Source: Aduncisulcus paluster
Lineage: Eukaryota
Length of the DNA stretch: 47,055 nucleotides
NCBI GenBank assembly: GCA_024181965.1
Contig: BQXS01010884.1
Coordinates: 1-47,055, forward strand
Direction of reading: 5' to 3'
The stretch's first letter is position 1. Each line of letters begins with the position of its first letter. The notes beneath the pieces are model-generated. The model saw only the letters and a program-made list of their open reading frames with translations, did not search any database and was not told the DNA's origin. Of the stretch, positions 21,383 through 47,055 are shown one piece after another. The translations under genes and the position numbers were made by a program.

Positions 21383-24300
21383 TTAGAATATTATTGGTGT
21401 CGGACCACATATTTTTCTAAGAACAAATATTGTGATGATGGCCAATATCGTCAGCCCAAGAGTAAATATTATTAGTCGAATTTCGTAAGATGAAAGGAAT
21501 AGAAATTCAGAGTTATATGAATTAAGAGATACTGAAAATACATCATCTAAGCAACCAGAAATATATTCTTCACTCGCTTGATAACTTGATTGGGTGAGGG
21601 AAGGGCATTGATCACACACAGAAAACCCTTCTGTTTGGAAGGAAAAGGCATAGTCTGACAAACAGGATTCAATTAGATTATGATTTGAGGATGAAATGGA
21701 AACTGATGATGCTGAAATAGGTGAAGAGAGGTCACTAATATGAATTATAAATATATTCATCTCAGGAATTTTAAAAATATAGAAATCATAATCAAGGGAG
21801 CACGTCGAAGTAAATGAAACGATAGAATAACTGATCGTATCATCTGATACAACATAAAAATCCGACAACATGCTATCTTCGACAATATAATAGTCATAAC
21901 ACTGGCAAATACTTGAACACTGAACATTTGAATATTTTACAATGATTTCAGCACTTACAAGGCTTTGAAAAACACATGGATCAAGTGCACCCAGAAAGAT
22001 CTGCTCTTCAGAGGCAGTAGCTTCCGTGATAAGCATTGTATGGGAAGATATTGATGACTGAAGAACGGTGGCAGAATCGGTGATAACATATGTAATGGAA
22101 GAAGAGGAATCGATCAGAGAAGAACTTGCAAAGACATCAGAAATTGTATCGATGCTCAGGCCAATGGTAGCAACACCGATCATTTGTTCATCGAATAAGA
22201 TTTTCTGACTCATGTTAAAACCTGTAGTTTCAAATATATTTGTTGGACCCGTAATAATTAAATCTTCGACAGAATCACTGAACATTTGAATATTTTACAA
22301 TGATTTCAGCACTTACAAGGCTTTGAAAAACACATGGATCAAGTGCACCCAGAAAGATCTGCTCTTCAGAGGCAGTAGCTTCCGTGATAAGCATTGTATG
22401 GGAAGATATTGATGACTGAAGAACGGTGGCAGAATCGGTGATAACATATGTAATGGAAGAAGAGGAATCGATCAGAGAAGAACTTGCAAAGACATCAGAA
22501 ATTGTATCGATGCTCAGGCCAATGGTAGCAACACCGATCATTTGTTCATCGAATAAGATTTTCTGACTCATGTTAAAACCTGTAGTTTCAAATATATTTG
22601 TTGGACCCGTAATAATTAAATCTTCGACAGAATGTTTGGTTTGGATGAACCATGGAGTTTCGAGTGGAGAATAGCTCGTGTCAAAGGATTCTCCGGGAAA
22701 AGAAATAAAAATGCCCGATAATCCAGAAACACCAATGGAAAGAACATTTGAATCCCATTCATCAAGGTCAGAAAAGGAAGAGATGAAGGTTGGAGATAGC
22801 AAGGAGAATATATTCGCTTCAATAATTGGTGTTTCATAGAAAATCGAGGCGTTTTCATTCGAGGGGTTTGAATAATTTCTCGACAAATCATCTGAAGCCT
22901 TTTGGAAGAAATCTTCTTCAATCAAGAGAGGATTGAGAAGAAATGGGCTATCTTCTCCAAAAATATCATTAATTACATCAAAATTGTGATCGCTCGGAGG
23001 GACGTGAGTGGCTGTGTGAGTTCTCATTAGTTGAATATTCGATCGTAATGTATCTTCTGGGTAAACATTATACCCAAGAATATAATCATATTTGGTCTGC
23101 AACGACTCGACAGCTTGGCTGATGTATCCGTAAACAAGATCACAGGAACAGAATTTCCCCTCGATAAGAGGATTCTCAACACCGATATCCTCACACCGAT
23201 GGATTGGTGGTTGCAAAATACTGATTGAATAATCAACACTAGCAAGGGAAAATACAATGATAATATCATATTTATGGATATATTTCCAGAAATACGTTGT
23301 AGAAACATCTTGAAATCTTCCATCATATAAATATCGAATGGTATCAACAGTAATGTTTCCTTGGTCAATATTCAAAGAATAAGTAGAACCAAAAATAGAA
23401 TCTGAGAAAGTAGATCCTCCTGTTGATGTTGTACCAGATAAATGAAACTGCTCAAGATCATCAATTTGGATTTGCTGAGGAGTAATTCCAGTTGAATTCA
23501 AGATGGGATGAGAAAGAATAGTTCCATCTGGTCTAAAAATAGAAAAATATGACATATCTGATATTGACGGATGAGAAACAAGTGAGATAAGCTGTTTTGA
23601 GTCGAGTTGCATGAAGATAGTTACGAAAGAGTCACCAGTGTATACAAGCTTTGATAAGACAATACTCTGCCTGTTGTATAACATTCCATGGGTGGGTACC
23701 ATAACAACAGGAAGAAGTTTGGAGGAATAAAAAGGATCGCAAAGAGTATCTCCGTTCTCATTCACAAGATATTCTGACGGACAATCGACTAGCAAACGAA
23801 ATAATCGAAAGGCATGCTGTGTGAAGAATTTCGTCATCCTGTCGTCAATTCCTTTTAATATCGACGACTCAGACCCGTGATACCATAAATTAAGCCCGTC
23901 AAGCACACCAGATATCTCATCTATATTTTGATGGACTGAACCTCCGCCCAATTCGTGATACTTTGAGACATCAATAAGTTCATAAATACCGTTGCGTTCC
24001 TTGACGATCCTTCTGAGGGTCATTTCGGTGTTGTCAATGTAATGAATACCAGAAACGAGCCCATTGTCCTTTGCGAATGAAGCTAAAGAAACACGATAAA
24101 ATATTGGGATTATTGGATTGTATGTATTGTGAATATCAATATTTGAATAGAAAAACGATGAAAATGAGTGTGGAAAGAGGGAACCAAGAGAAATACAAAT
24201 AATATAGAGAGGAGATGGTGAAACAAGGGGTCGATTGGATGAAATATTAAACATTTTGGAGGGGCTTACATTTATATTCGCACTTCCGAGAGGTGATGAT

Positions 24301-25511
24301 GCAAGTTTCTCACGTAAAACAGTCTGAGCGCCAACATTAGAAGTAAGAGAGGAGAATAGAAGGGAAGCGGCGTCTTGAAACGCTTGAGAAATAGAAGATT
24401 GAGCGTCATTCACAAAGGAAGAGAAGGAAAGATCTTGAACAGTGAGAGTTTGAAGAGAGGAAATATTCATACCCTCAAAATAATCTGCGAGAGAAAGTCT
24501 GGCTTTGGAAACAGTCAAAGGGGTGGCTTTGGCCAATCCTCGAAAATGAGTGCACGAATCGGATGAAGCTTCTAACGATCCATTGTATTCACCATCGGTG
24601 GATAATATGGTGAAATAGTCGAGAGGAGTGAGTCCAGATAATATCATGTCGGAAATATCACGCAGAATGTTGATAGCGGAGGTTACTAGACCATCTTCTG
24701 AATCAAGAAAATATTTAATCGTCTCATCGATAGTTGTGTCGATGATAATGGCAATACCTCGTCTAAAACCAGAAAATGAAGACGATTTTATGCTCAGGGA
24801 GGATGCTGGATCATATTTGGCTCTATAGCTAACATCTACTGGTAATGATGGATGGAGAAAAGCAGCGGCGGGATAGTACAACATCGATGAGTTGGAAATA
24901 ACTCCAGATAAACTCACAACCGAACTAGTCTCATCAGAACACTCAACTTCCATAGATTCTGAAATATCACATGAAGGGGATTGATTCGAAACAAAAGATG
25001 ATCTAAGAGCTTCAACAATGGAAGAAGAAGAAAAGAAATCTTCTTTTTTATCGCAATCTGTGGAAAAGGTTGGATTACAGTAAAGAGTGGCATTATCAGA
25101 TCGGGGAATAGAAACGATATCGGAATCCATAAAAAAAGAATATGAATTAATTTCTGAAGATATTTCATCTTCATCTAACATTTCACTGTAAAAATGCAAT
25201 TTTGTTGTTTCATCAGAATCGGGTTGAGTTATGGATGTTTCAATGTCATAAATTGATTTTAAAGCGGAATCAACACAAGATGATAATGAAGATTCCGCAA
25301 TGGTTACTATACTGCTTCCATCACACGAATATGTATTAATTACACTTTGTTCTGCAATATCAACAAAAGAATCGATTGGAATAAATGAATTGAATGTTGA
25401 TTTTAATTGAGTATATAAAGAATATGAACTTTCTGCAGCAGAATCAAGCGATTCCAAGGTTAAAGCATAAAATAGGGAAAATACAACTAAAAATATGATG
25501 AACTCCTGCAT
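21383..25511 (-). CDS. VWA + Cache domain type I membrane protein (CACHD1/alpha2delta-like), about 1256 aa after collapsing a 358-bp duplication
   Basis: Signal peptide; YDP...RGIAIIIDTT and ILSGLTPLDYF (VWA); YFSIFRPDGTILSHP, FPGESFDTSYSPLETPWF and IGVATIG (Cache); Cys-rich stalk; C-terminal TM IIFTLGLTILAIITIFVL. Confidence 0.75.
21918..22633. repeat. exact 358-bp tandem duplication (21918-22275 = 22276-22633), frameshifting
   Basis: Identical copies; the length is not a multiple of 3, which splits the ORF. Confidence 0.9.
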
Positions 25512-28596: not shown

Positions 28597-29491
28597 TTAT
28601 TCTACTTTCTCAGCATCCTTATCGTATGCACCGACGGGTTTTGTAAAATCGCAATTCCTACGCGAAGCTGCTGGATCCATGGCAAAACCATCAAGTTGAC
28701 CTTTGTACCCTTTAGTTGTTCTACCTTCTTTTTGGGCAGCTTCAGCCCAGAAAGATATCGATCCAACTGTTTCCAAATCTTGAGCTGATTTTTTTGAGAT
28801 AGTTTGAGAATGAGGGGGGCACTTTTATGGAAGTTTGGTTTGGATGAACCATGNNNNNNNNNNNNNNNNNNNNAGCTGCTGGATCCATGGCAAAACCATC
28901 AAGTTGACCTTTGTACCCTTTAGTTGTTCTACCTTCTTTTTGGGCAGCTTCAGCCCAGAAAGATATCGATCCAACTGTTTCCAAATCTTGAGCTGATTTT
29001 TTTGAGATAGTTTGAGAATGAGGGGGGGTGGAAATTACCTCTTCTTTATCTTTTTCAACAGAATCTTTAATAAAGGATAAAATAGGAACATTCGATTTTG
29101 TTTTTGCTTTACCATGAATAGAATGAGAAAAAGAAATAGTAGGATGACTTGCTTCAATTCTATGATGATGTTGTTCCTCCATACGTTTATCTTCAGCTTG
29201 TATACGGTCCATGGCTAATCTCATTAAATCATCATCTTCTATTTTTTGAGCAGGAAAGACATCACGAGGCTTGTGTTGCTCTCCAGTGAATGTTGATCTG
29301 AGAGTACTATCGAAATGCATTGTATAATCATGTTGGGCAGATATGGCAACTTCTTTTAATCGGATCCCGGATTTTTCTACTTTTTCTTTTTCAAGGGAAT
29401 AGGCCTCATTTTCTTGCCAAAATCCAATTTTTGTTGGATTTGGTCGTTTTTGATTGTAAGATTGTGCTCCTAATGTTAGGTGAAGGGACAT
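28597..29491 (-). CDS. SPAG8-like flagellar microtubule inner protein, about 228 aa after collapsing the gap duplication
   Basis: The reconstructed C-terminus is SISFWAE...MDPAASRRNCDFTKPVGAYDKDAEKVE*. The FW-E, RxNCxFxxP and N-terminal xWQE motifs recall SPAG8. Confidence 0.55.
28666..29027. repeat. 154-bp duplication across an N gap (28666-28819 = 28874-29027), with 34 nt of foreign sequence before the Ns
   Basis: Identical copies flank Ns at 28854-28873. Confidence 0.88.
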
Positions 29492-30366: not shown

Positions 30367-30855
30367 ATGGAAAGTTTTGGGGATCCTAGATTTCAAATAA
30401 TGAAATCTCTTAGCGATATTGATCCAATTACACTTTTTAACTATTTGAAGCTTAGAGCGGAAGTATTTATTATTGAACAGGCTTGTAGATACGAAGATTT
30501 GGATGACTATGATCTCTCTTGTTCTCATATCTTGGTATTTGATGATAAAAATGATCTAATCATTGGGTGCGCTAGGGTGATCTTTCATGGTAAAATCGCT
30601 AAAATTGGTCGCTTGCTTGTTAAAAAATCTTATAGAAAACGTAAAATAGGCTCAAAATTACTCTTGAAATGTATTGAATACATTCAATCTCACGAAGAAA
30701 AAATGGAGATCAGGTTGGATGCCCAAACACAGTATATTGGATTATATTTAAAACAAAATTTTATTCAGTGTGGTAAAGAGTATGTTTTGGATGGAATTCC
30801 TCACGTTCCTATGATATTTTCGACAAAAGAGGGAAGAGAAGACATAATACATTAA
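30367..30855 (+). CDS. GNAT acetyltransferase, ElaA-like
   Basis: LKLRAEVFIIEQAC.YEDLD..D, KIGRLLV..YRKRKIG..LL, LDAQ and EYVLDGIPHVPM. Confidence 0.88.
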   Translation: MESFGDPRFQIMKSLSDIDPITLFNYLKLRAEVFIIEQACRYEDLDDYDLSCSHILVFDDKNDLIIGCARVIFHGKIAKIGRLLVKKSYRKRKIGSKLLLKCIEYIQSHEEKMEIRLDAQTQYIGLYLKQNFIQCGKEYVLDGIPHVPMIFSTKEGREDIIH

Positions 30856-32384: not shown

Positions 32385-33293
32385 TTACAACTTCTTAAGT
32401 CCTCTGGATGCAAGGTAGAAGGCACCAATTAATCCAGGGTGGGATAATTTCGGGGGGACAATGTATTTGTCCACCGGAGGGACAGAAACATAATCATTGA
32501 GATATTTAACGAACTTCATCCGGATGAGTTTAAATAAACAGGAGCGTTGCATGACCCCGCCGCCAAGTACAATTCTTTTTGGACGCCACATGAGGGTGAT
32601 ATTAAGACATAAGTGAGCCAAATAGTGAGCTACGTTATTCCAGACATCATGATCATCAGGGAGTGATTTCAATTCAGAGGGATCAATCCCAGCTCGTTTA
32701 GCTATGGAAGACGCACATGCCATGCCCTCGATACACCCGCATTTATGAAATGAACATACACCAGGAAATCCAGTGAGTTGATCAACACGAGAAACTGGAC
32801 AAGAAGCATGTCCAGCTTCACAGAAAATTGTGGATTCATCTTCAAAACACACACTGGCGCCTATTCCAGTTCCTACTGTAACATAGGCCGTCGAAATAGA
32901 TGGACTTTCAAATGTCTCTTTCGACTCGGCTAAAGCTGGAGGATAAACATCAGTATGCATTGTACACACCATAGAAGGAAAAGACTTTTCAAAAAAGCCA
33001 AGAATATTTGTGAATTTCCACTGTTCTTTGGGAGTAGTTGTTATATACCCATAAAATTCACTACCTTCAGTGAGATCGATTGGACCGAAAGCAGCGACCC
33101 CAATAGCAAGAATATTGTGGCTTTTACCCCACAATTCAATGATCTTTTTGCACTGACCGAGAGTTTCTTCGGGTGAAACGGTTTCTATCCTCTTTGATAT
33201 CACGATATTGTGAATATCCTTAATGGCGGCTAATCCCAATAAAAAACTGGTCCCACCTGCTTCTATCCCAACAATAAATCCAGATTTATCCAT
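32385..33293 (-). CDS. ROK-family fructokinase (ScrK-like)
   Basis: GIEAGGT, FGPIDL..YGYITTTPK..W, YVTVGTGIG, EAGH, GVCSFHKCGCIEGMA (Zn site) and IVLGGGVMQ. Confidence 0.9.
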   Translation of the reverse strand: MDKSGFIVGIEAGGTSFLLGLAAIKDIHNIVISKRIETVSPEETLGQCKKIIELWGKSHNILAIGVAAFGPIDLTEGSEFYGYITTTPKEQWKFTNILGFFEKSFPSMVCTMHTDVYPPALAESKETFESPSISTAYVTVGTGIGASVCFEDESTIFCEAGHASCPVSRVDQLTGFPGVCSFHKCGCIEGMACASSIAKRAGIDPSELKSLPDDHDVWNNVAHYLAHLCLNITLMWRPKRIVLGGGVMQRSCLFKLIRMKFVKYLNDYVSVPPVDKYIVPPKLSHPGLIGAFYLASRGLKKL

Positions 33294-39720: not shown

Positions 39721-40740
39721 CAACATTTCTTTGAAGAGAGAAACCATTATACAAAAAACTATATAGGATCACATGATAATATTATTATTATTAGTAATTA
39801 TCATTGATATCTAGAAGTATTTCTATATATACTAAAATAAAAAGAATCTGTTAGTTTATCTGGGATTTATGTCCGTGAACAAATTTATTAAAATAAAAGC
39901 GCAAAATCTCTTTACAATAATTTTTGGATCTCCCAGAAATGGAAGTCAAAAAAGTATTAATCTCTGCAAGGTGGCGACAATAATTAATTCGAATTATATT
40001 AATATAATAATTAATATAATTATAATCCTAAAATAAAATAATAAAATAAACCATTGTAATATCAGTCCTGCTAACAAATCTTTTAAAAAGATAAACCTGA
40101 CGTCAAGAGAAAACCACTTCGAAAGACATATGATATCGAATAGGAGTTGATGCCACAGTGTTGCTGTAGTGGTGAAAGGTCACCATATCTGGAATAGGCC
40201 TTTTATGGCATAGAAGTCAATACCACAGTTCTTCAGTCCTGTCACATTTCTATTTGATGGATTATATAAGCCAAACGGTCACAACCAAGTGAAAGTCCAA
40301 CAAATAATGGGGTGAATCACTACGTATGATGGTTTACTTTAAATCACGCTGTATTTATCTCTAGGTGGAGTTTGGAAGATAATTGAACACATAGGTGTTG
40401 GCGACGTAAGAAGAAGGCTCATAACCTCAGAAAAGGTATGGGAAGAGCATGAGCAGCTGATCTATAGAGACTATAGAAAGGTCGGAAGTCACCAAATAAA
40501 TCATATTTAAATAAACTAACTCGCTTCTATCATGAAAAATCAAAATATCGAAAATACAAATTCTATTTTTAGAAATTCTATTTTTAGATTACCAAAAATC
40601 CTATATCCAATTTTTTGTAAAAATACAATCATAAATTCATGTGAATTGACATTTTCATCAATATCAAATATGGAATACTTAACTTTGGATCATATTTCCA
40701 ATCTTTCTCAGAGACAATAACAATAAACAATTCTCTTTCC

Positions 40741-43700
40741 TTACATTTCTAATATTTCTGTAATAATTCTCTCAAAAAAGCTCCTAAAAGATGCCAAATA
40801 ATCATCAATCCACTCTACATGTCCTAAAACATTGTATCCAATTTTAATCAACCTTTGAGCAGCTCTAAAGTACCTCAAACATGGTATGGATGAATGGTGA
40901 ATATGCTTGTCCCGAAGTTTCTCAGTATTTTGGCGCAATGATTTCGAAATAATTTTCATGAATTTTGCAGACTCTTTTTGAAGTTCGAGAAAACTAATAG
41001 AATTAAATCGCGATAAATTTTGACTTATTGAATGCCCAATAAAATATTTTTCTGAACTTTTAACACTTTTAGCAATGCTTTTCTTGGCCTTTTCTTTTTC
41101 ATCCTGTTTTGAATGACTTTCATTTGGAGTTTTTTGGAATTTTCCATAAATCTCCTCGATTTTTAATTGCTTTTTGAAGTACAACTTATAAGATTTATCG
41201 AGAATATCGTGTTGAATTTTGATATTTCGCAAATGAATGCCATCGACAAAATGGAAAAGCATGCGAAAAATACAATTCATTGGCCCACTTTGTTGTTGCC
41301 CCCAATATCCTTCTTTGAATTGCAAAGCACACAAAATAAGATCACTTTCCAATTCAAATGGATGGCTATAAATCAACGATTCTAGCCTCAAAAATATTGT
41401 CGAGAGTGGAAGTGGAGGTCCGAGATCAGGAATAGAAAATGGAGGACTTGTGAGAAAAAGAGGAGGTGAAAATAATTGATGGAAATCAATATTTGTGTCA
41501 ACAACTTCAAAAGGGCTTTTATAACAAGATTTGAAAAACATGTGCTCTTTCCTGGCTTTCTCTTCAGTCCACCAAACAGAGGTTGAATCTTTGCGCAAAG
41601 TTGAGGATTTTTCATCCACAAATAACCATCTAAATTTAGAATATTTCTTCTTCCAATCCTTTAAGAATACCTTTTTCTCTTTGCGATCTTCAATTTTTGA
41701 AACCTCATAGTTTCTCAAAGCAATCAAACCGAGGGACCAAGCTGGAACATTCCACACCGATTTAAGTGCCTTAATATAGGCCTTTTCCATAATAGAACGA
41801 ATAATATTATCTTTCATATATTGTTTTATGTCATGAAAANNNNNNNNNNNNNNNNNNNNTCTAAATTTAGAATATTTCTTCTTCCAATCCTTTAAGAATA
41901 CCTTTTTCTCTTTGCGATCTTCAATTTTTGAAACCTCATAGTTTCTCAAAGCAATCAAACCGAGGGACCAAGCTGGAACATTCCACACCGATTTAAGTGC
42001 CTTAATATAGGCCTTTTCCATAATAGAACGAATAATATTATCTTTCATATATTGTTTTATGTCATGAAGAACAATGAAATCATCATCGGACCAAAACAGA
42101 CCATCCTCAATACGCTGAGAACATGAGAAAAAATACATTGATAAATACCTGGACAAAACAGAACCAAAAATGGGAGAAATTAGAGGACTTGAAGACTTTG
42201 AATCGCATTCTTTCTCTCCTTCTTTCTTTTCATGAGAGATTAGTGGGCTTTGAGAATTAGGTTGACTTTCAATAATAGACACAGAACCAACCTCATCCCG
42301 AAGTGATTTTGAGGTATAAGGATTGATTAAACGCTTATCAATAGAATGGAAAAGAGGTTGAGAAATACACGACTCTGATTCATTCTTCTTTTTCTCACTA
42401 ATATCTATTAGTGGATGCCCGGGGATTATTTGCTTTATCTTTGAATCGGATTGTTCTTTTGGGTCATTTTGACCAGGGTGAACAAGCTCCTCATTTTCAA
42501 GTATCAGACTATCCTTCTCAATTCTATTTATAGAATGAGAAACTGCCCAATTCCCAAATTCAATACAAAATAAATCAATGAAATGTTGAGATACAATATC
42601 AGATAATAATGTTGGAATGGTCTTTTTCACTCTCTTTGCCCGAGTCGATATTAATTTTGTCAAAGAGATCGATTCATGATGAGAAAATGGATCCGAATTT
42701 GATACTAAAAATAGAAACATAACACCATATGTAATGTTTGACAAAATGGACTGAATATCCTTCATGATTGATCGAACAATTTCAGATTTCTCAACCAAAA
42801 TGACAATCGGTGTGGAATTGAGTTGCTCACCAAATCTATTAATAGATTCACATAAATGAATCCGATTTTTGAAAGTATTAATAGAAACAACCTCATACCC
42901 ATTGGAACGAAGGGAATATCCGAGGAATGGGACTAAAATATTCGAAATTTCTGAGTTCGAAGTGTCTAAAAATAGATAAGAAGGAGCAATATGAGTTGAA
43001 TCGATTGAGAAATCAGATTTTGAGGAATGAAAACTCAACAATGAGGGTCTAATTTTGGCCAAGATTTCCTCGATATACCATCTAAACCACTCACAAAAAG
43101 AAGGCATTTTTACACCATAAATAGGGTCTAGAATATCAATTTTCACGCCAAAATCATGAGAAAAACTCACTGAAGAACGTTCGTAGGTTGGAACAAATCG
43201 TTTTAAAGCACAAATAAAATCAATTTTCTCGGGACAAATCGATTCCTCTTCTTCTTCCTCTTTTTCTTCCGCTTTCTCCTCAGAGCAGCCAATTCTATTT
43301 TTAGAATGAGAAACACTCACATACAGATGGGGTTTGGTTCTTCTAAGGCACATAATCGCTGTTTCATTGCACAGAGCATTTAGATCAGCACCAGAGAAGC
43401 CCTCGGTGAGTCCAGCAATGTCATTTAATATATTATAATCAAATCCAACCCATTTCTTCGTATGAATCTTTAAAATATTGACTCTTCCATCCAGGTCAGG
43501 TGCCGTGAACAGTATTTCTCTATCGAATCGCCCAGGTCGTCTCAAGGCAGCATCCAGAGAGTCTGCTCGATTTGTAGCCCCGATGACAATGACATCTCCT
43601 CGATCTTCAAGACCATCCAACAGAGATAGAAGAGTGGACACGATCGATGAGTGGATCTGGTCTTGTTTGGATGATCTTTGAGGACAAAGACCATCGATCT

Positions 43701-44595
43701 CGTCAAAGAATATAATCGACGGTGCATGCTTTTTTGCATCTAAAAATAGCAATCTTAATTGTTTCTCAGATTCCCCAACCCATTTTGAAAGGCAATCAGC
43801 CCCATTCTTAAGGAAAAAAGATACTTTCTGTCCAAGCATATTCGAACACATAGACGCAAGAACACGACAAACAAGGGTCTTTCCACATCCAGGGGGTCCA
43901 TAAAATAGAATGCCTCGAGGTGGATTCGCACCGACTGATCCAAAAATAGCCTTGTGACAAAGTGGAAATAATACGATCTCTTTTACCTGTCTAATTTGTT
44001 CATCTAATCCACCAATCTCGTCAAAGAATATAATCGACGGTGCATGCTTTTTTGCATCTAAAAATAGCAATCTTAATTGTTTCTCAGATTCCCCAACCCA
44101 TTTTGAAAGGCAATCAGCCCCATTCTTAAGGAAAAAAGATACTTTCTGTCCAAGCATATTCGAACACATAGACGCAAGAACACGACAAACAAGGGTCTTT
44201 CCACATCCAGGGGGTCCATAAAATAGAATGCCTCGAGGTGGATTCGCACCGACTGATCCAAAAATAGCCTTGTGACAAAGTGGAAATAATACGATCTCTT
44301 TTACCTGTCTAATTTGTTCATCTAATCCACCAATATCGTCAAATGAAAGTGAAGAATCAATTCGATCTGTTGCAACCATTGATGGAACCTCAGGTTGGGG
44401 TTCACGCTGCGATAGTTCAGGATTTCTTTCCTTCATTTGGAGATATAAGGACCGAGAAGATGTAAATTTTGAAGAAGAATTGACGTTCGATTGCCTAAGA
44501 GATTTCTTATATATCACATCTGCATCTTCGAAAATAGAAAAGGAATCTGAAAACCCTTCAGATTCGGGAAGAAGAAGAAGAGGATTCATCGTCAT
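40741..44595 (-). CDS. ATAD2/Yta7-like AAA+ ATPase with a bromodomain-like segment (about 1100 aa once two duplications are collapsed)
   Basis: PPRGILFYGPPGCGKT, FFLKNGADCLSKWVGESEKQLRLLF, FFDEIDGL.P.RSSKQDQIHSSIVSTLL and ALRRPGRFDRE. PLPLSTIFLRLE..IY..ELESDLIL is bromodomain-like. Confidence 0.88.
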   Translation of the reverse strand: MTMNPLLLLPESEGFSDSFSIFEDADVIYKKSLRQSNVNSSSKFTSSRSLYLQMKERNPELSQREPQPEVPSMVATDRIDSSLSFDDIGGLDEQIRQVKEIVLFPLCHKAIFGSVGANPPRGILFYGPPGCGKTLVCRVLASMCSNMLGQKVSFFLKNGADCLSKWVGESEKQLRLLFLDAKKHAPSIIFFDEIGGLDEQIRQVKEIVLFPLCHKAIFGSVGANPPRGILFYGPPGCGKTLVCRVLASMCSNMLGQKVSFFLKNGADCLSKWVGESEKQLRLLFLDAKKHAPSIIFFDEIDGLCPQRSSKQDQIHSSIVSTLLSLLDGLEDRGDVIVIGATNRADSLDAALRRPGRFDREILFTAPDLDGRVNILKIHTKKWVGFDYNILNDIAGLTEGFSGADLNALCNETAIMCLRRTKPHLYVSVSHSKNRIGCSEEKAEEKEEEEEESICPEKIDFICALKRFVPTYERSSVSFSHDFGVKIDILDPIYGVKMPSFCEWFRWYIEEILAKIRPSLLSFHSSKSDFSIDSTHIAPSYLFLDTSNSEISNILVPFLGYSLRSNGYEVVSINTFKNRIHLCESINRFGEQLNSTPIVILVEKSEIVRSIMKDIQSILSNITYGVMFLFLVSNSDPFSHHESISLTKLISTRAKRVKKTIPTLLSDIVSQHFIDLFCIEFGNWAVSHSINRIEKDSLILENEELVHPGQNDPKEQSDSKIKQIIPGHPLIDISEKKKNESESCISQPLFHSIDKRLINPYTSKSLRDEVGSVSIIESQPNSQSPLISHEKKEGEKECDSKSSSPLISPIFGSVLSRYLSMYFFSCSQRIEDGLFWSDDDFIVLHDIKQYMKDNIIRSIMEKAYIKALKSVWNVPAWSLGLIALRNYEVSKIEDRKEKKVFLKDWKKKYSKFRXXXXXXXFHDIKQYMKDNIIRSIMEKAYIKALKSVWNVPAWSLGLIALRNYEVSKIEDRKEKKVFLKDWKKKYSKFRWLFVDEKSSTLRKDSTSVWWTEEKARKEHMFFKSCYKSPFEVVDTNIDFHQLFSPPLFLTSPPFSIPDLGPPLPLSTIFLRLESLIYSHPFELESDLILCALQFKEGYWGQQQSGPMNCIFRMLFHFVDGIHLRNIKIQHDILDKSYKLYFKKQLKIEEIYGKFQKTPNESHSKQDEKEKAKKSIAKSVKSSEKYFIGHSISQNLSRFNSISFLELQKESAKFMKIISKSLRQNTEKLRDKHIHHSSIPCLRYFRAAQRLIKIGYNVLGHVEWIDDYLASFRSFFERIITEILEM
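41629..42068. repeat. exact 209-bp duplication across an N gap (41629-41837 = 41860-42068)
   Basis: Identical copies flank Ns at 41840-41859. Confidence 0.9.
43697..44334. repeat. exact in-frame 318-bp tandem duplication within the AAA domain
   Basis: 106 aa (IGGLDEQ...IIFFDE) are repeated with identical nucleotides. Confidence 0.9.
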
Positions 44596-47029
44596 CGTCT
44601 ACTCTTCTCCTATGAATTGTCAATCTAATCCAATCTCCTTTCGGAGCATACCGAGCCATGATAGCTTTTTGGACCTTCTCAGTTTCACCAATTTCCTGCA
44701 TTTTATATGATACACTCGAAACGGAGGAAATCGATGAATTCAATGAAGAATCTGATGACTCTTCATCACGAATAAGATCTAAATCTGGATTCGAGGCACT
44801 CTCAATATCAGTGTCATCGTCCGAAGAATTTCGAATTGAGCTTGGTGGTTCTAAATTTAGAGCATGTCTTTTATGATGATCTAAAAATAGAAGTTTCTCA
44901 CCAATCTTACTCTTCTCAGAAGATATTCGTGGGTTTGACAGGCACTTTTCGAATCCATGTACTTTGCTCGGATCTTCCATCCAAGATTTAACATCAGAAA
45001 TCTCAATAACCTTCTCAGTTATCCCAAAATAGGACAATGAGGTATTTTCCCAAAATTTACGAGATTTCTTGCCCATTATTTTCTTTTCTTTCAGCATAAT
45101 ATCCCGCATTGAAGCAATTTCTTTCTTATTCCACGAAATCAATTCTTTTAACATTCTGTTTGAATACTTTGACATTTCCTTACATTTTCCCGCTAATTCT
45201 ATTTCAAATCCATTTAAAAGAATGAAAATATTCCTTAAATTCTTTAAATATGGCTTATAATCTTCGTAAGCTTGCTGTGAAGGAGGCGAAAGGAAAATAT
45301 ATGAAACTTTCTCAGAAAATACAGGAATAAATACAGGGGATAGAATCCAATAACAAAAATTATCACACTGATCTGGTGAACATAATGAGTGAATTCTAGA
45401 AATATATTTAGAAATATCTGTGCTTGAAACAAAGAAAGGAATCTCAAATAGAGAAGATGCAGAGAAAAGATTCGATAATACACGTAAATAGACAGAAACC
45501 ACCGAATAAAATGAAATATTATCGCAGATAATTACCCAAACTCCTGCTTTATAACACACTTCAACTTGTTTCTCACTTTCCAAAAATAGGCGAACCATTG
45601 ATAATTTTGAGGAAGATGCTTGTAAAGACTCAAGAAGTGCCTTCCCTTCGTCTAAAATACTCATGCCATGAAGACAAGCAGCCAATCCACTCTTATTATC
45701 ACAATTAATGTGTGAATCGTGTTTAAGTGGATCTAAAATAAGAATAGAACTTTGAGAAAGTTGCTTAAGAGTGGAAAATATTTGCTTTGAACATCCTTTC
45801 CTGTGAATATGCTGAGCTTTATGATATAATAATAATTGTTGCCGCGAGAAGGAAAGAGGAATATAATGAACATTGGAAGAAGCGTTACATCTGTGCTCAT
45901 TGAGGAATATGACACAAACATCTTTAATCCCAAAATAGAATGAATCATGATCCTGAGAAACTCTACTCCGCGGATCTAAAAATAGCATATCGAACATATC
46001 AAGAACAGATGGAGATATTTCAGCCAACTGATGAACAACCTCCTGAGTCATGATATAGAAACATATGTTGGCAAGATTGTCAACCTCCGATTCGATCGTT
46101 TTCCACTCACATAAATCCCTAATACAAATAGATTCGACATTTCTTCCCAGCTGAGAATAATAATAAGAGAATAATTCAACAGGACAAATGATAGCCCAAC
46201 AATGTCCACACAACGACTTCATAAAGAAAGGCAATGATTCAACATGGCATGGAAACAGAAGAGAGGCACTAGACCGATGTGAATATGCAGAACGAAGAGA
46301 ATCAATAACAAGATTCAAATCGTCATCTTGCTTCTCTTCAATCTGAGATTGTCCTTGAGAAAGTTTGAGAATATCAAGTTGGAGATTCAGTTCCCTCGCT
46401 ATAAATAGAACGACACTGATCGGATTGAGCGAAATAATATCTGTTACCGATATCCATCTCGGATCGGAACAACCAACGAACTTCACGAGAAAAGACTCAA
46501 AGCTGAACAATGCTTTTTGAACATCAATTTTCTTCTGAGAATACCTTCGTTTTCCTGTTATTTCGTCTTTTAAAACCTTCGGGGAAGTTTTGATATTTTC
46601 TTCTTTTTTCCCTCGAAGAATAATTTCAATGCAAGACTCGATTCCCAACATCCCAAGAAAAGATAATTCACACATCAGTAAACTCTTAGAAGATGGACTA
46701 ATAATAGGTTCTTTCTCTGTTCTATATTTAGACAATATGCCAGATTCAGAGCGAGTTGAAATTTGGCAATTATTAAAAAATTTCAACACAATTTCCCGCA
46801 AAGAAGGCGAAAGAGATATAAATATTCGCTGAAATTCAGAATAACAAATATATGTTCTATATTTAGAAACTGAGAAAGAAGGAATCATTGGAAAAAGGCA
46901 ATCTATTTTTGGAATTGACTTGGAATATACAATTCTGAATAAATCATAATCAGTATCCACAGTATCGTGAGAAGAAGATGAAGAAGATGCCGATTCTTCC
47001 TCTTCCTCTCCTCTTCCTTCAGAAATCAA
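44558..47029 (-). CDS. degenerate CHD/SNF2-like protein (chromo-like segment plus apparently inactive helicase fold), 5' end probably truncated
   Basis: FLVKFVG...RWIS (chromo-like), WAIICP (motif Ia), YIMTQE, FDMLFLDP (motif II without DEAH), PLSFSRQQLLLY, LKQLSQ, SSSKLSMVRLFL (SGK) and VWVIIC. Confidence 0.6.
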   Translation of the reverse strand: MISEGRGEEEEESASSSSSSHDTVDTDYDLFRIVYSKSIPKIDCLFPMIPSFSVSKYRTYICYSEFQRIFISLSPSLREIVLKFFNNCQISTRSESGILSKYRTEKEPIISPSSKSLLMCELSFLGMLGIESCIEIILRGKKEENIKTSPKVLKDEITGKRRYSQKKIDVQKALFSFESFLVKFVGCSDPRWISVTDIISLNPISVVLFIARELNLQLDILKLSQGQSQIEEKQDDDLNLVIDSLRSAYSHRSSASLLFPCHVESLPFFMKSLCGHCWAIICPVELFSYYYSQLGRNVESICIRDLCEWKTIESEVDNLANICFYIMTQEVVHQLAEISPSVLDMFDMLFLDPRSRVSQDHDSFYFGIKDVCVIFLNEHRCNASSNVHYIPLSFSRQQLLLYHKAQHIHRKGCSKQIFSTLKQLSQSSILILDPLKHDSHINCDNKSGLAACLHGMSILDEGKALLESLQASSSKLSMVRLFLESEKQVEVCYKAGVWVIICDNISFYSVVSVYLRVLSNLFSASSLFEIPFFVSSTDISKYISRIHSLCSPDQCDNFCYWILSPVFIPVFSEKVSYIFLSPPSQQAYEDYKPYLKNLRNIFILLNGFEIELAGKCKEMSKYSNRMLKELISWNKKEIASMRDIMLKEKKIMGKKSRKFWENTSLSYFGITEKVIEISDVKSWMEDPSKVHGFEKCLSNPRISSEKSKIGEKLLFLDHHKRHALNLEPPSSIRNSSDDDTDIESASNPDLDLIRDEESSDSSLNSSISSVSSVSYKMQEIGETEKVQKAIMARYAPKGDWIRLTIHRRRVDDDDESSSSSSRI

Positions 47030-47055
47030 TTCATTGGTGAAGAATCAATTCGATC

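Follow-up and report, generated by a model that had tools for sequence, protein, structure and literature searches.

A probable chimera of CHD3-type and Yta7/ATAD2 genes, broken by assembly errors, in the fornicate Aduncisulcus paluster

The segregases Yta7, ATAD2 and Abo1 and the CHD remodellers of subfamily II (CHD3/4/5, Mi-2 and PICKLE) are the described systems closest to the locus considered here. In published accounts, Yta7 is a hexamer with an active AAA1 domain, an inactive AAA2 domain and a disordered acidic N-terminal region, and it threads the H3 tail by means of its AAA1 pore loops (PMC9898759; mechanism also in PMC8410769). One account sets Yta7 entirely apart from the SNF2 remodellers (PMC8410769), and one or two N-terminal PHD fingers are the mark of CHD subfamily II (PMC9113485). 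We analysed a 47,055-nt stretch of DNA (hereafter the window) from Aduncisulcus paluster, a free-living fornicate (PMC9933649), which is contig C10884 of a 29.6-Mb assembly with 23,235 contigs and carries long, apparently intron-poor, eukaryotic genes. With a probability of roughly 0.75, its minus strand holds, at 40741..47036, part of one ~2,437-codon gene that is a chimera of duplicated CHD3/Mi-2-type and Yta7/ATAD2 genes and was broken by the assembly. The CHD3-type gene would have contributed the start, two PHD fingers and a chromo and SNF2 region without any catalytic motif, and the Yta7/ATAD2 gene everything downstream of a point within its N-terminal region; the genome also keeps an intact, unfused copy of each parent.

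In the published assembly the locus appears as two open reading frames (ORFs) on the minus strand. ORF1 (44558-47044, 828 aa stop to stop) and ORF2 (40741-44598) overlap by 38 nt, counted from the first ATG of ORF2 at 44595, and a GGG is present at 44566-44568, just as an earlier sequence-only reading of the window had it. The region 43991-47055 was compared with contigs of two runs, X1 (depth 1286) and X2 (depth 19.9), which stem from one sample and were built with an assembler differing from that of the window assembly. One contig per run crossed 44015-46968 with zero substitutions, and the sole difference over that span was a single insertion, AA behind 44567, present at full depth in both run contigs (2/2). 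With two bases added at 44567, a single frame stays open for 2,101 codons between 47044 and the stop at 40741, which one or three added bases do not achieve; the corrected junction reads four Asp, one Glu and seven Ser, followed by ORF2. Because the insertion occurs in both runs and only two added bases open the frame, the window lacks 2 nt of the TCT run (44566..44568, minus strand) rather than carrying an extra C. The apparent frameshift is an assembly error with no recoding, and the fusion is real at the DNA level. The sequence-only reading was thus right in suspecting an indel error and mistaken in its size, having proposed a single superfluous base.

Two further explanations of the break were considered. 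A junction intron was rejected, as neither of the nearest GT-AG pairs seen by eye (47 and 56 nt) would bring the two ORFs into one frame, and the run comparison listed no joint there. A programmed +1 frameshift, which had been listed as one possible cause, or a real frameshift allele would agree with the window sequence itself, and a minority allele is compatible with the contigs. The in-frame form stands at full depth in both runs, so that the genomic DNA does not show two frames, and many similar contig faults are found, including duplicated flanks at all four N gaps of the window (described below); recoding or a genuine allele is accordingly very improbable.

A single DNA frame could still give mostly separate products, for example a free AAA protein from an internal promoter, and the public annotation of the locus does list two proteins, P0003 (697 aa) and P0004 (981 aa), with the record of ORF2 labelled 'Tat-binding homolog 7 [Aduncisulcus paluster]'. 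The seam is read from contigs, X2 being only guessed to be RNA. Yet the public models were built on the broken assembly, the corrected frame contains neither a stop nor an intergenic stretch, and the N-terminal region of an unfused Yta7 paralog is matched upstream of the break (see below), all of which argues that separate products are improbable here.

The assembly contains other faults that affect this gene. The last 19 bases of the window (47037..47055) are an exact copy of 44349-44367, from which we infer a chimeric read and a false contig end. The adjoining 46489..47036 (minus strand) overlaps the start of contig C11357 with 548/548 nt identical, and C11357 extends the frame upstream, past a Glu run, to a pair of PHD fingers, adding ~520 further codons, with the gene start at position 2113 of L004 (contig C11357). 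Within the gene, a false 318-nt tandem duplication (43691..44326) makes the first 106 AAA1 codons occur twice, and a false 231-nt duplication (41629..42068) surrounds the N gap at 41840-41859. Both run contigs depart from the window at 44015 and continue with the sequence after the second copy of the 318-nt repeat, and contig C8785 crosses the 231-nt duplication as one copy. A duplicated AAA half-domain, which also inflates CDC48/p97 scores, is by the run contigs an artefact. The run contigs extend 135 and 96 bases past 46968; by arithmetic, collapsing the two duplications would apparently put the end of both near 40560, from which nothing firm follows. Summed after these corrections, the full gene has 7,314 nt and a predicted product of 2,437 aa, so the ~1900 aa first estimated for the fused protein was too short.

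Such faults recur. The right flank is duplicated on the left at 4/4 N gaps of the window (6882-6901, 8382-8401, 28854-28873 and 41840-41859; 286, 264, 154 and 209 nt, respectively), which is a systematic scaffolding artefact corrupting gene models, and the CHD3-type and Yta7 paralogs are likewise split across overlapping contigs. At 21383-25511 of the window lie two ORFs of 1078 and 300 aa on the minus strand, without a Pfam match and overlapping by 11 nt; they both carry the same ~120-residue stretch and are probably a single gene split by a similar false duplication with a frame slip.

A search with insect ATAD2 revealed a second Yta7 gene in the genome (C10178), which is unfused and has its own start. 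This paralog of ~1,650 aa is assembled from overlapping contigs (L035 3918-7502 and L047 1492-3003; G000 C10178 and C10871). Residues 788-809 of ORF1, upstream of the break (44618..44683, minus strand), matched its aa 222-243 (z 6.3, 0/500 shuffles), and residues 17-37 of ORF2, downstream of the break (44488..44550, minus strand), matched its aa 286-306 (z 8.6, 0/500 shuffles). Because ORF1 aa 788-809 match the paralog, the Yta7-derived part begins inside ORF1, before the break, and the true seam lies around ORF1 aa 735-785. A Ser/acidic linker at 44690..44842 (minus strand), just past which the paralog homology starts, is the likely CHD3/Yta7 seam. The single frame, together with matches to the paralog on either side of the break, supports the proposal of one fused chromatin protein.

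The AAA1 domain of the chimera (43324..44340, minus strand) matched Pfam AAA at 6e-62, with Walker A, Walker B, sensor 1, arginine finger and pore loop intact, as in the Yta7/ATAD2/Abo1 segregases. It is 71% identical to the paralog and 57-58% to four ATAD2-type proteins, as against 49-50% to two CDC48 proteins. In a tree of 31 rows, which include 15/18 Yta7-type metagenome frames (those long enough), a 100/100 branch sets it on the Yta7 side, where its partner is the paralog (95/96); archaeal CDC48 is the only outgroup, A. paluster the only fornicate, and a long-branch warning applies. Identity, tree placement and motifs together bear out the assignment of an ATAD2/Yta7-type AAA domain in the sequence-only reading, and the pairing fits a duplication within this lineage. 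The region after AAA1 (42499..43233, minus strand), in the position of the inactive AAA2, is collinear with the Yta7 paralog (z 29.3) and gave no match to a 6-sequence ATAD2 profile. In alignment to the paralog, the best-conserved C-terminal block common to both lies at 41299..41421 (minus strand); its resemblance to bromodomain helices was borne out by no search.

The fused protein is further like the known segregases in having an acidic low-complexity region before AAA1 and no nucleotide motifs after it. It is unlike them in that ~1,250 extra CHD3-type N-terminal residues replace most of the disordered N-terminal region, and in that its AAA2 and bromodomain are not recognisable by profile. 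A Cdc48-family table, as rendered in its source, gives no Yta7 for Giardia or Trichomonas (PMC5070193).

At the other end of the protein, the C11357 part contains a PHD finger (PF00628, 27.1 bits against a cut-off of 24 in Pfam) and a Cys/His cluster assigned as a second PHD finger by alignment to a paralog, L037/L026. When 11 SNF2 proteins read from the genome were compared with the C11357 part, L026 was the one that matched (E 3.8e-14), and its upstream contig L037 matched as well (E 1.6e-18). The ATPase motifs of L026 are intact, and its best 120 matches are almost all of PICKLE/CHD3 type. Together, L037 1-903 and L026 1-4488 (G000 C11407 and C11330) form a remodeller of CHD3/PICKLE type that looks intact and has tandem PHD fingers. 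In the chimera, the start region, the two PHD fingers and the next ~150 aa are collinear with it (z 5.6, 27.0 and 10.8, respectively) over a span of ~430 aa, with 41/92 identities in the PHD fingers. The fused protein thus resembles CHD subfamily II in its two N-terminal PHD fingers in tandem, a stretch collinear with the CHD3-type gene of the same genome, and in its putative chromo and SNF2 remnants, which follow in the expected order. It differs in lacking Walker A, DExH and motifs III, V and VI, and in that Yta7 replaces the C-terminal accessory domains; DUF1087, DUF1086 and SLIDE at the C-terminus had no Pfam match, and the comparison with the paralog tail gave z -0.4. Table 1 of one survey lists no subfamily II gene for its one metamonad (PMC9113485).

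The genome holds other SNF2 genes. L023 162-4166 and L024 2445-4538 are highly similar, one having a SLIDE domain (ISWI-like) and the other 698 aa, and represent a recent duplication or alleles. The 1,973-aa protein of L032 3409-9327 matches SNF2 weakly (E 5e-10), with its Walker A altered and DExH unmatched, and is possibly another degenerate SNF2.

The middle of ORF1 occupies the position of the paralog's chromo and ATPase region. A by-eye register places putative remnants in order, chromodomain through end of lobe 2, on the minus strand: a chromodomain-like remnant at 46397..46498 (ORF1 aa 183-216; by eye and position, z 0.4, not significant), a putative SNF2 lobe 1 at 45881..46315 (aa 244-388; without Walker A, DExH and TGTP, z 0.3, not significant) and a putative helical region with lobe 2 at 45155..45865 (aa 394-630; motifs V and VI absent). 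A MAFFT alignment likewise puts lobe 2 in register. None of 7 catalytic SNF2 patterns was found in ORF1 (Walker A, DExH, III, V and VI among those absent), and no ATP hydrolysis is therefore expected from this region.

Several results weigh against the chimera of a CHD3-type and a Yta7 gene as we propose it. The fusion is read here from contigs, in which rare variants are lost; X1 and X2 represent one sample, and the assembly may have been made from X1. The C11357 join is supported by the 548-nt identity, the run comparison having skipped the last ~90 bases as repeats. A bromodomain found no match in Pfam, PDB or the ATAD2 profile, and none in the unfused paralog either, which leaves the proposed bromo-like domain unconfirmed. 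In ORF1, SNF2 was detected neither by Pfam nor by PDB sequence search; hidden Markov models of 11 and 124 sequences gave no SNF2 signal, nor did hhalign (probability 0.13%); and three custom SNF2 profile tests reached z <= 1.9, with an unrelated control at 2.3. Three of the four ORF1 segments compared with L026 were not significant, and lobe 2 attained only z 2.6 (7/500 shuffles). AlphaFold models of ORF1 were of low confidence, with pLDDT 34 (no alignment) and 35 (8-row alignment with lobe 1 misregistered). The ESM scores discussed below (0.84 and 0.86; recognition 2542) fall below 0.9, which by the tool's own calibration makes them a lead only.

Pairwise global alignment of ORF1 with the genome's 11 SNF2 cores gave z 1.1 for L026 (2.9 without its low-complexity insert), the best being L024 at z 2.1; a search of 1.84 billion representatives for ORF1 homologs returned one match, ORF1 itself; and Foldseek with the first AlphaFold model returned nothing, which carries no weight. 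With the sequence and structure tests all negative or weak, the middle of ORF1 might be an unrelated domain lodged between a CHD3-derived PHD module and Yta7. This is unlikely, since the segment corresponds in position to the chromo and ATPase region of the paralog, MAFFT registers lobe 2, and ESM independently names SNF2: with the PHD part omitted, SNF2-clan clusters made up 10/10 best feature matches, CHD1 being first or second. Arabidopsis MOM1 was likewise missed by Pfam ATPase models (PMC9113485). The agreement of two independent pointers, position relative to the paralog and ESM, makes descent probable, and we consider it quite likely that the middle of ORF1 is a dead SNF2 region. Of the CHD/SNF2 half in the sequence-only reading, a derived and inactive SNF2 region is accordingly retained as probable on position, ESM and the remnants seen by eye, with no direct SNF2 detection; its chromo-like domain was confirmed by no search (no Pfam match, z 0.4).

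Granting SNF2 descent, the same fused gene may encode a PHD-targeted Yta7 similar to plant BRP1, in which the SNF2-derived middle is only a spacer in decay, whose frame is preserved for the sake of the AAA domain that follows. We regard this main rival as a serious though less favoured possibility. It would explain why identity to the CHD3 paralog drops from 41/92 in the PHD fingers to chance in the chromo and lobe 1 segments, and why ~60 residues after motif III appear missing (register by eye); the SNF2 remnant of MOM1 is dispensable (PMC2507757), and PHD-plus-AAA proteins exist, both among the long AAA matches (4/11) and as BRP1 (PMC4899616). On the other side, the putative motifs, by eye, keep most of their order and spacing across 450 aa, and SNF2 features are still picked by ESM, which together suggest a retained fold.

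Two Arabidopsis proteins are instructive in this respect. MOM1, like the fused protein, is CHD3-derived with an SNF2 region decayed past Pfam detection (PMC2507757, PMC9113485). MOM1 differs in acting via its CMM2 motif, and in the fused protein the whole ATPase span seems to be kept and joined to a predicted-active AAA motor. MOM1 is not known to have an AAA domain. BRP1 is similar in combining a PHD-like finger with AAA and in being an additional AAA protein that binds to the standard one, the Yta7-like BRAT1 (PMC4899616), so that BRP1-BRAT1 offers a model for a complex of fused and unfused copies, in which the fused copy may mix with its paralog. BRP1 differs in having zinc fingers of other families (PF13771/PF13832), no SNF2 region and a separate branch in the AAA1 tree.

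By analogy to Yta7, the chimera is probably a segregase of the Yta7 kind that readers of CHD origin direct to its targets. Its AAA1 domain would form a ring, either by itself or jointly with the unfused paralog, and might draw histone tails through the pore as Yta7 does; the PHD fingers of CHD origin, possibly helped by the dead SNF2 lobes, would select and hold the nucleosome, with the AAA domain as the only ATP motor. This division of labour, in which the AAA1 ring threads histone tails and the CHD-derived parts target the nucleosome, is offered tentatively, at slightly less than even odds. The fullest version, a self-targeting disassembly machine whose PHD fingers read the H3 tail while the dead SNF2 lobes grip DNA and the Yta7 ring threads the histone, must be considered doubtful.

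Searches for similar fusions found none. Among 1,066 candidates of 2,250-5,000 aa, 0/11 long AAA matches had SNF2 Pfam marks; 0/80 metagenome loci matched the CHD profile, and 0/18 Yta7-type frames had a PHD-like pattern upstream. As neither Pfam nor the CHD profile detects ORF1 itself, these searches are weak and blind to a fusion so decayed. No fornicate ortholog surfaced in a search crowded by two-domain CDC48, and no CHD-Yta7 fusion was found in the literature searched, where supplementary domain tables could bear on novelty. The combination of CHD3 and Yta7 thus appears new though both parts are known, is so far confined to one species, and is best read as a lineage-specific chimera.

Around the fused gene, a 240-codon plus-strand ORF (L004 2601-3323) diverges from its start at a distance of ~500 bp. 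Just beyond the fused gene's 3' end lies a ~150-bp dispersed repeat (window 40352-40500), found in 39 other places among 40 scored with 78-93% identity, which is possibly a small mobile element. Neighbours at 3317-4657, 30367-30855 and 32385-33293 of the window include a chromodomain protein, a GNAT acetyltransferase and a ROK-family protein.

The genome of this free-living fornicate carries a CHD subfamily II-like gene together with two Yta7 copies, and the fused gene is a probable natural case of an SNF2 pseudo-enzyme. If the self-targeting machine were true, it would hint that CHD3/Mi-2 and ATAD2 act jointly on the same nucleosomes in other eukaryotes. A natural chain with both SNF2 and Yta7 parts suggests a functional link between the two, which is testable in yeast or human cells.

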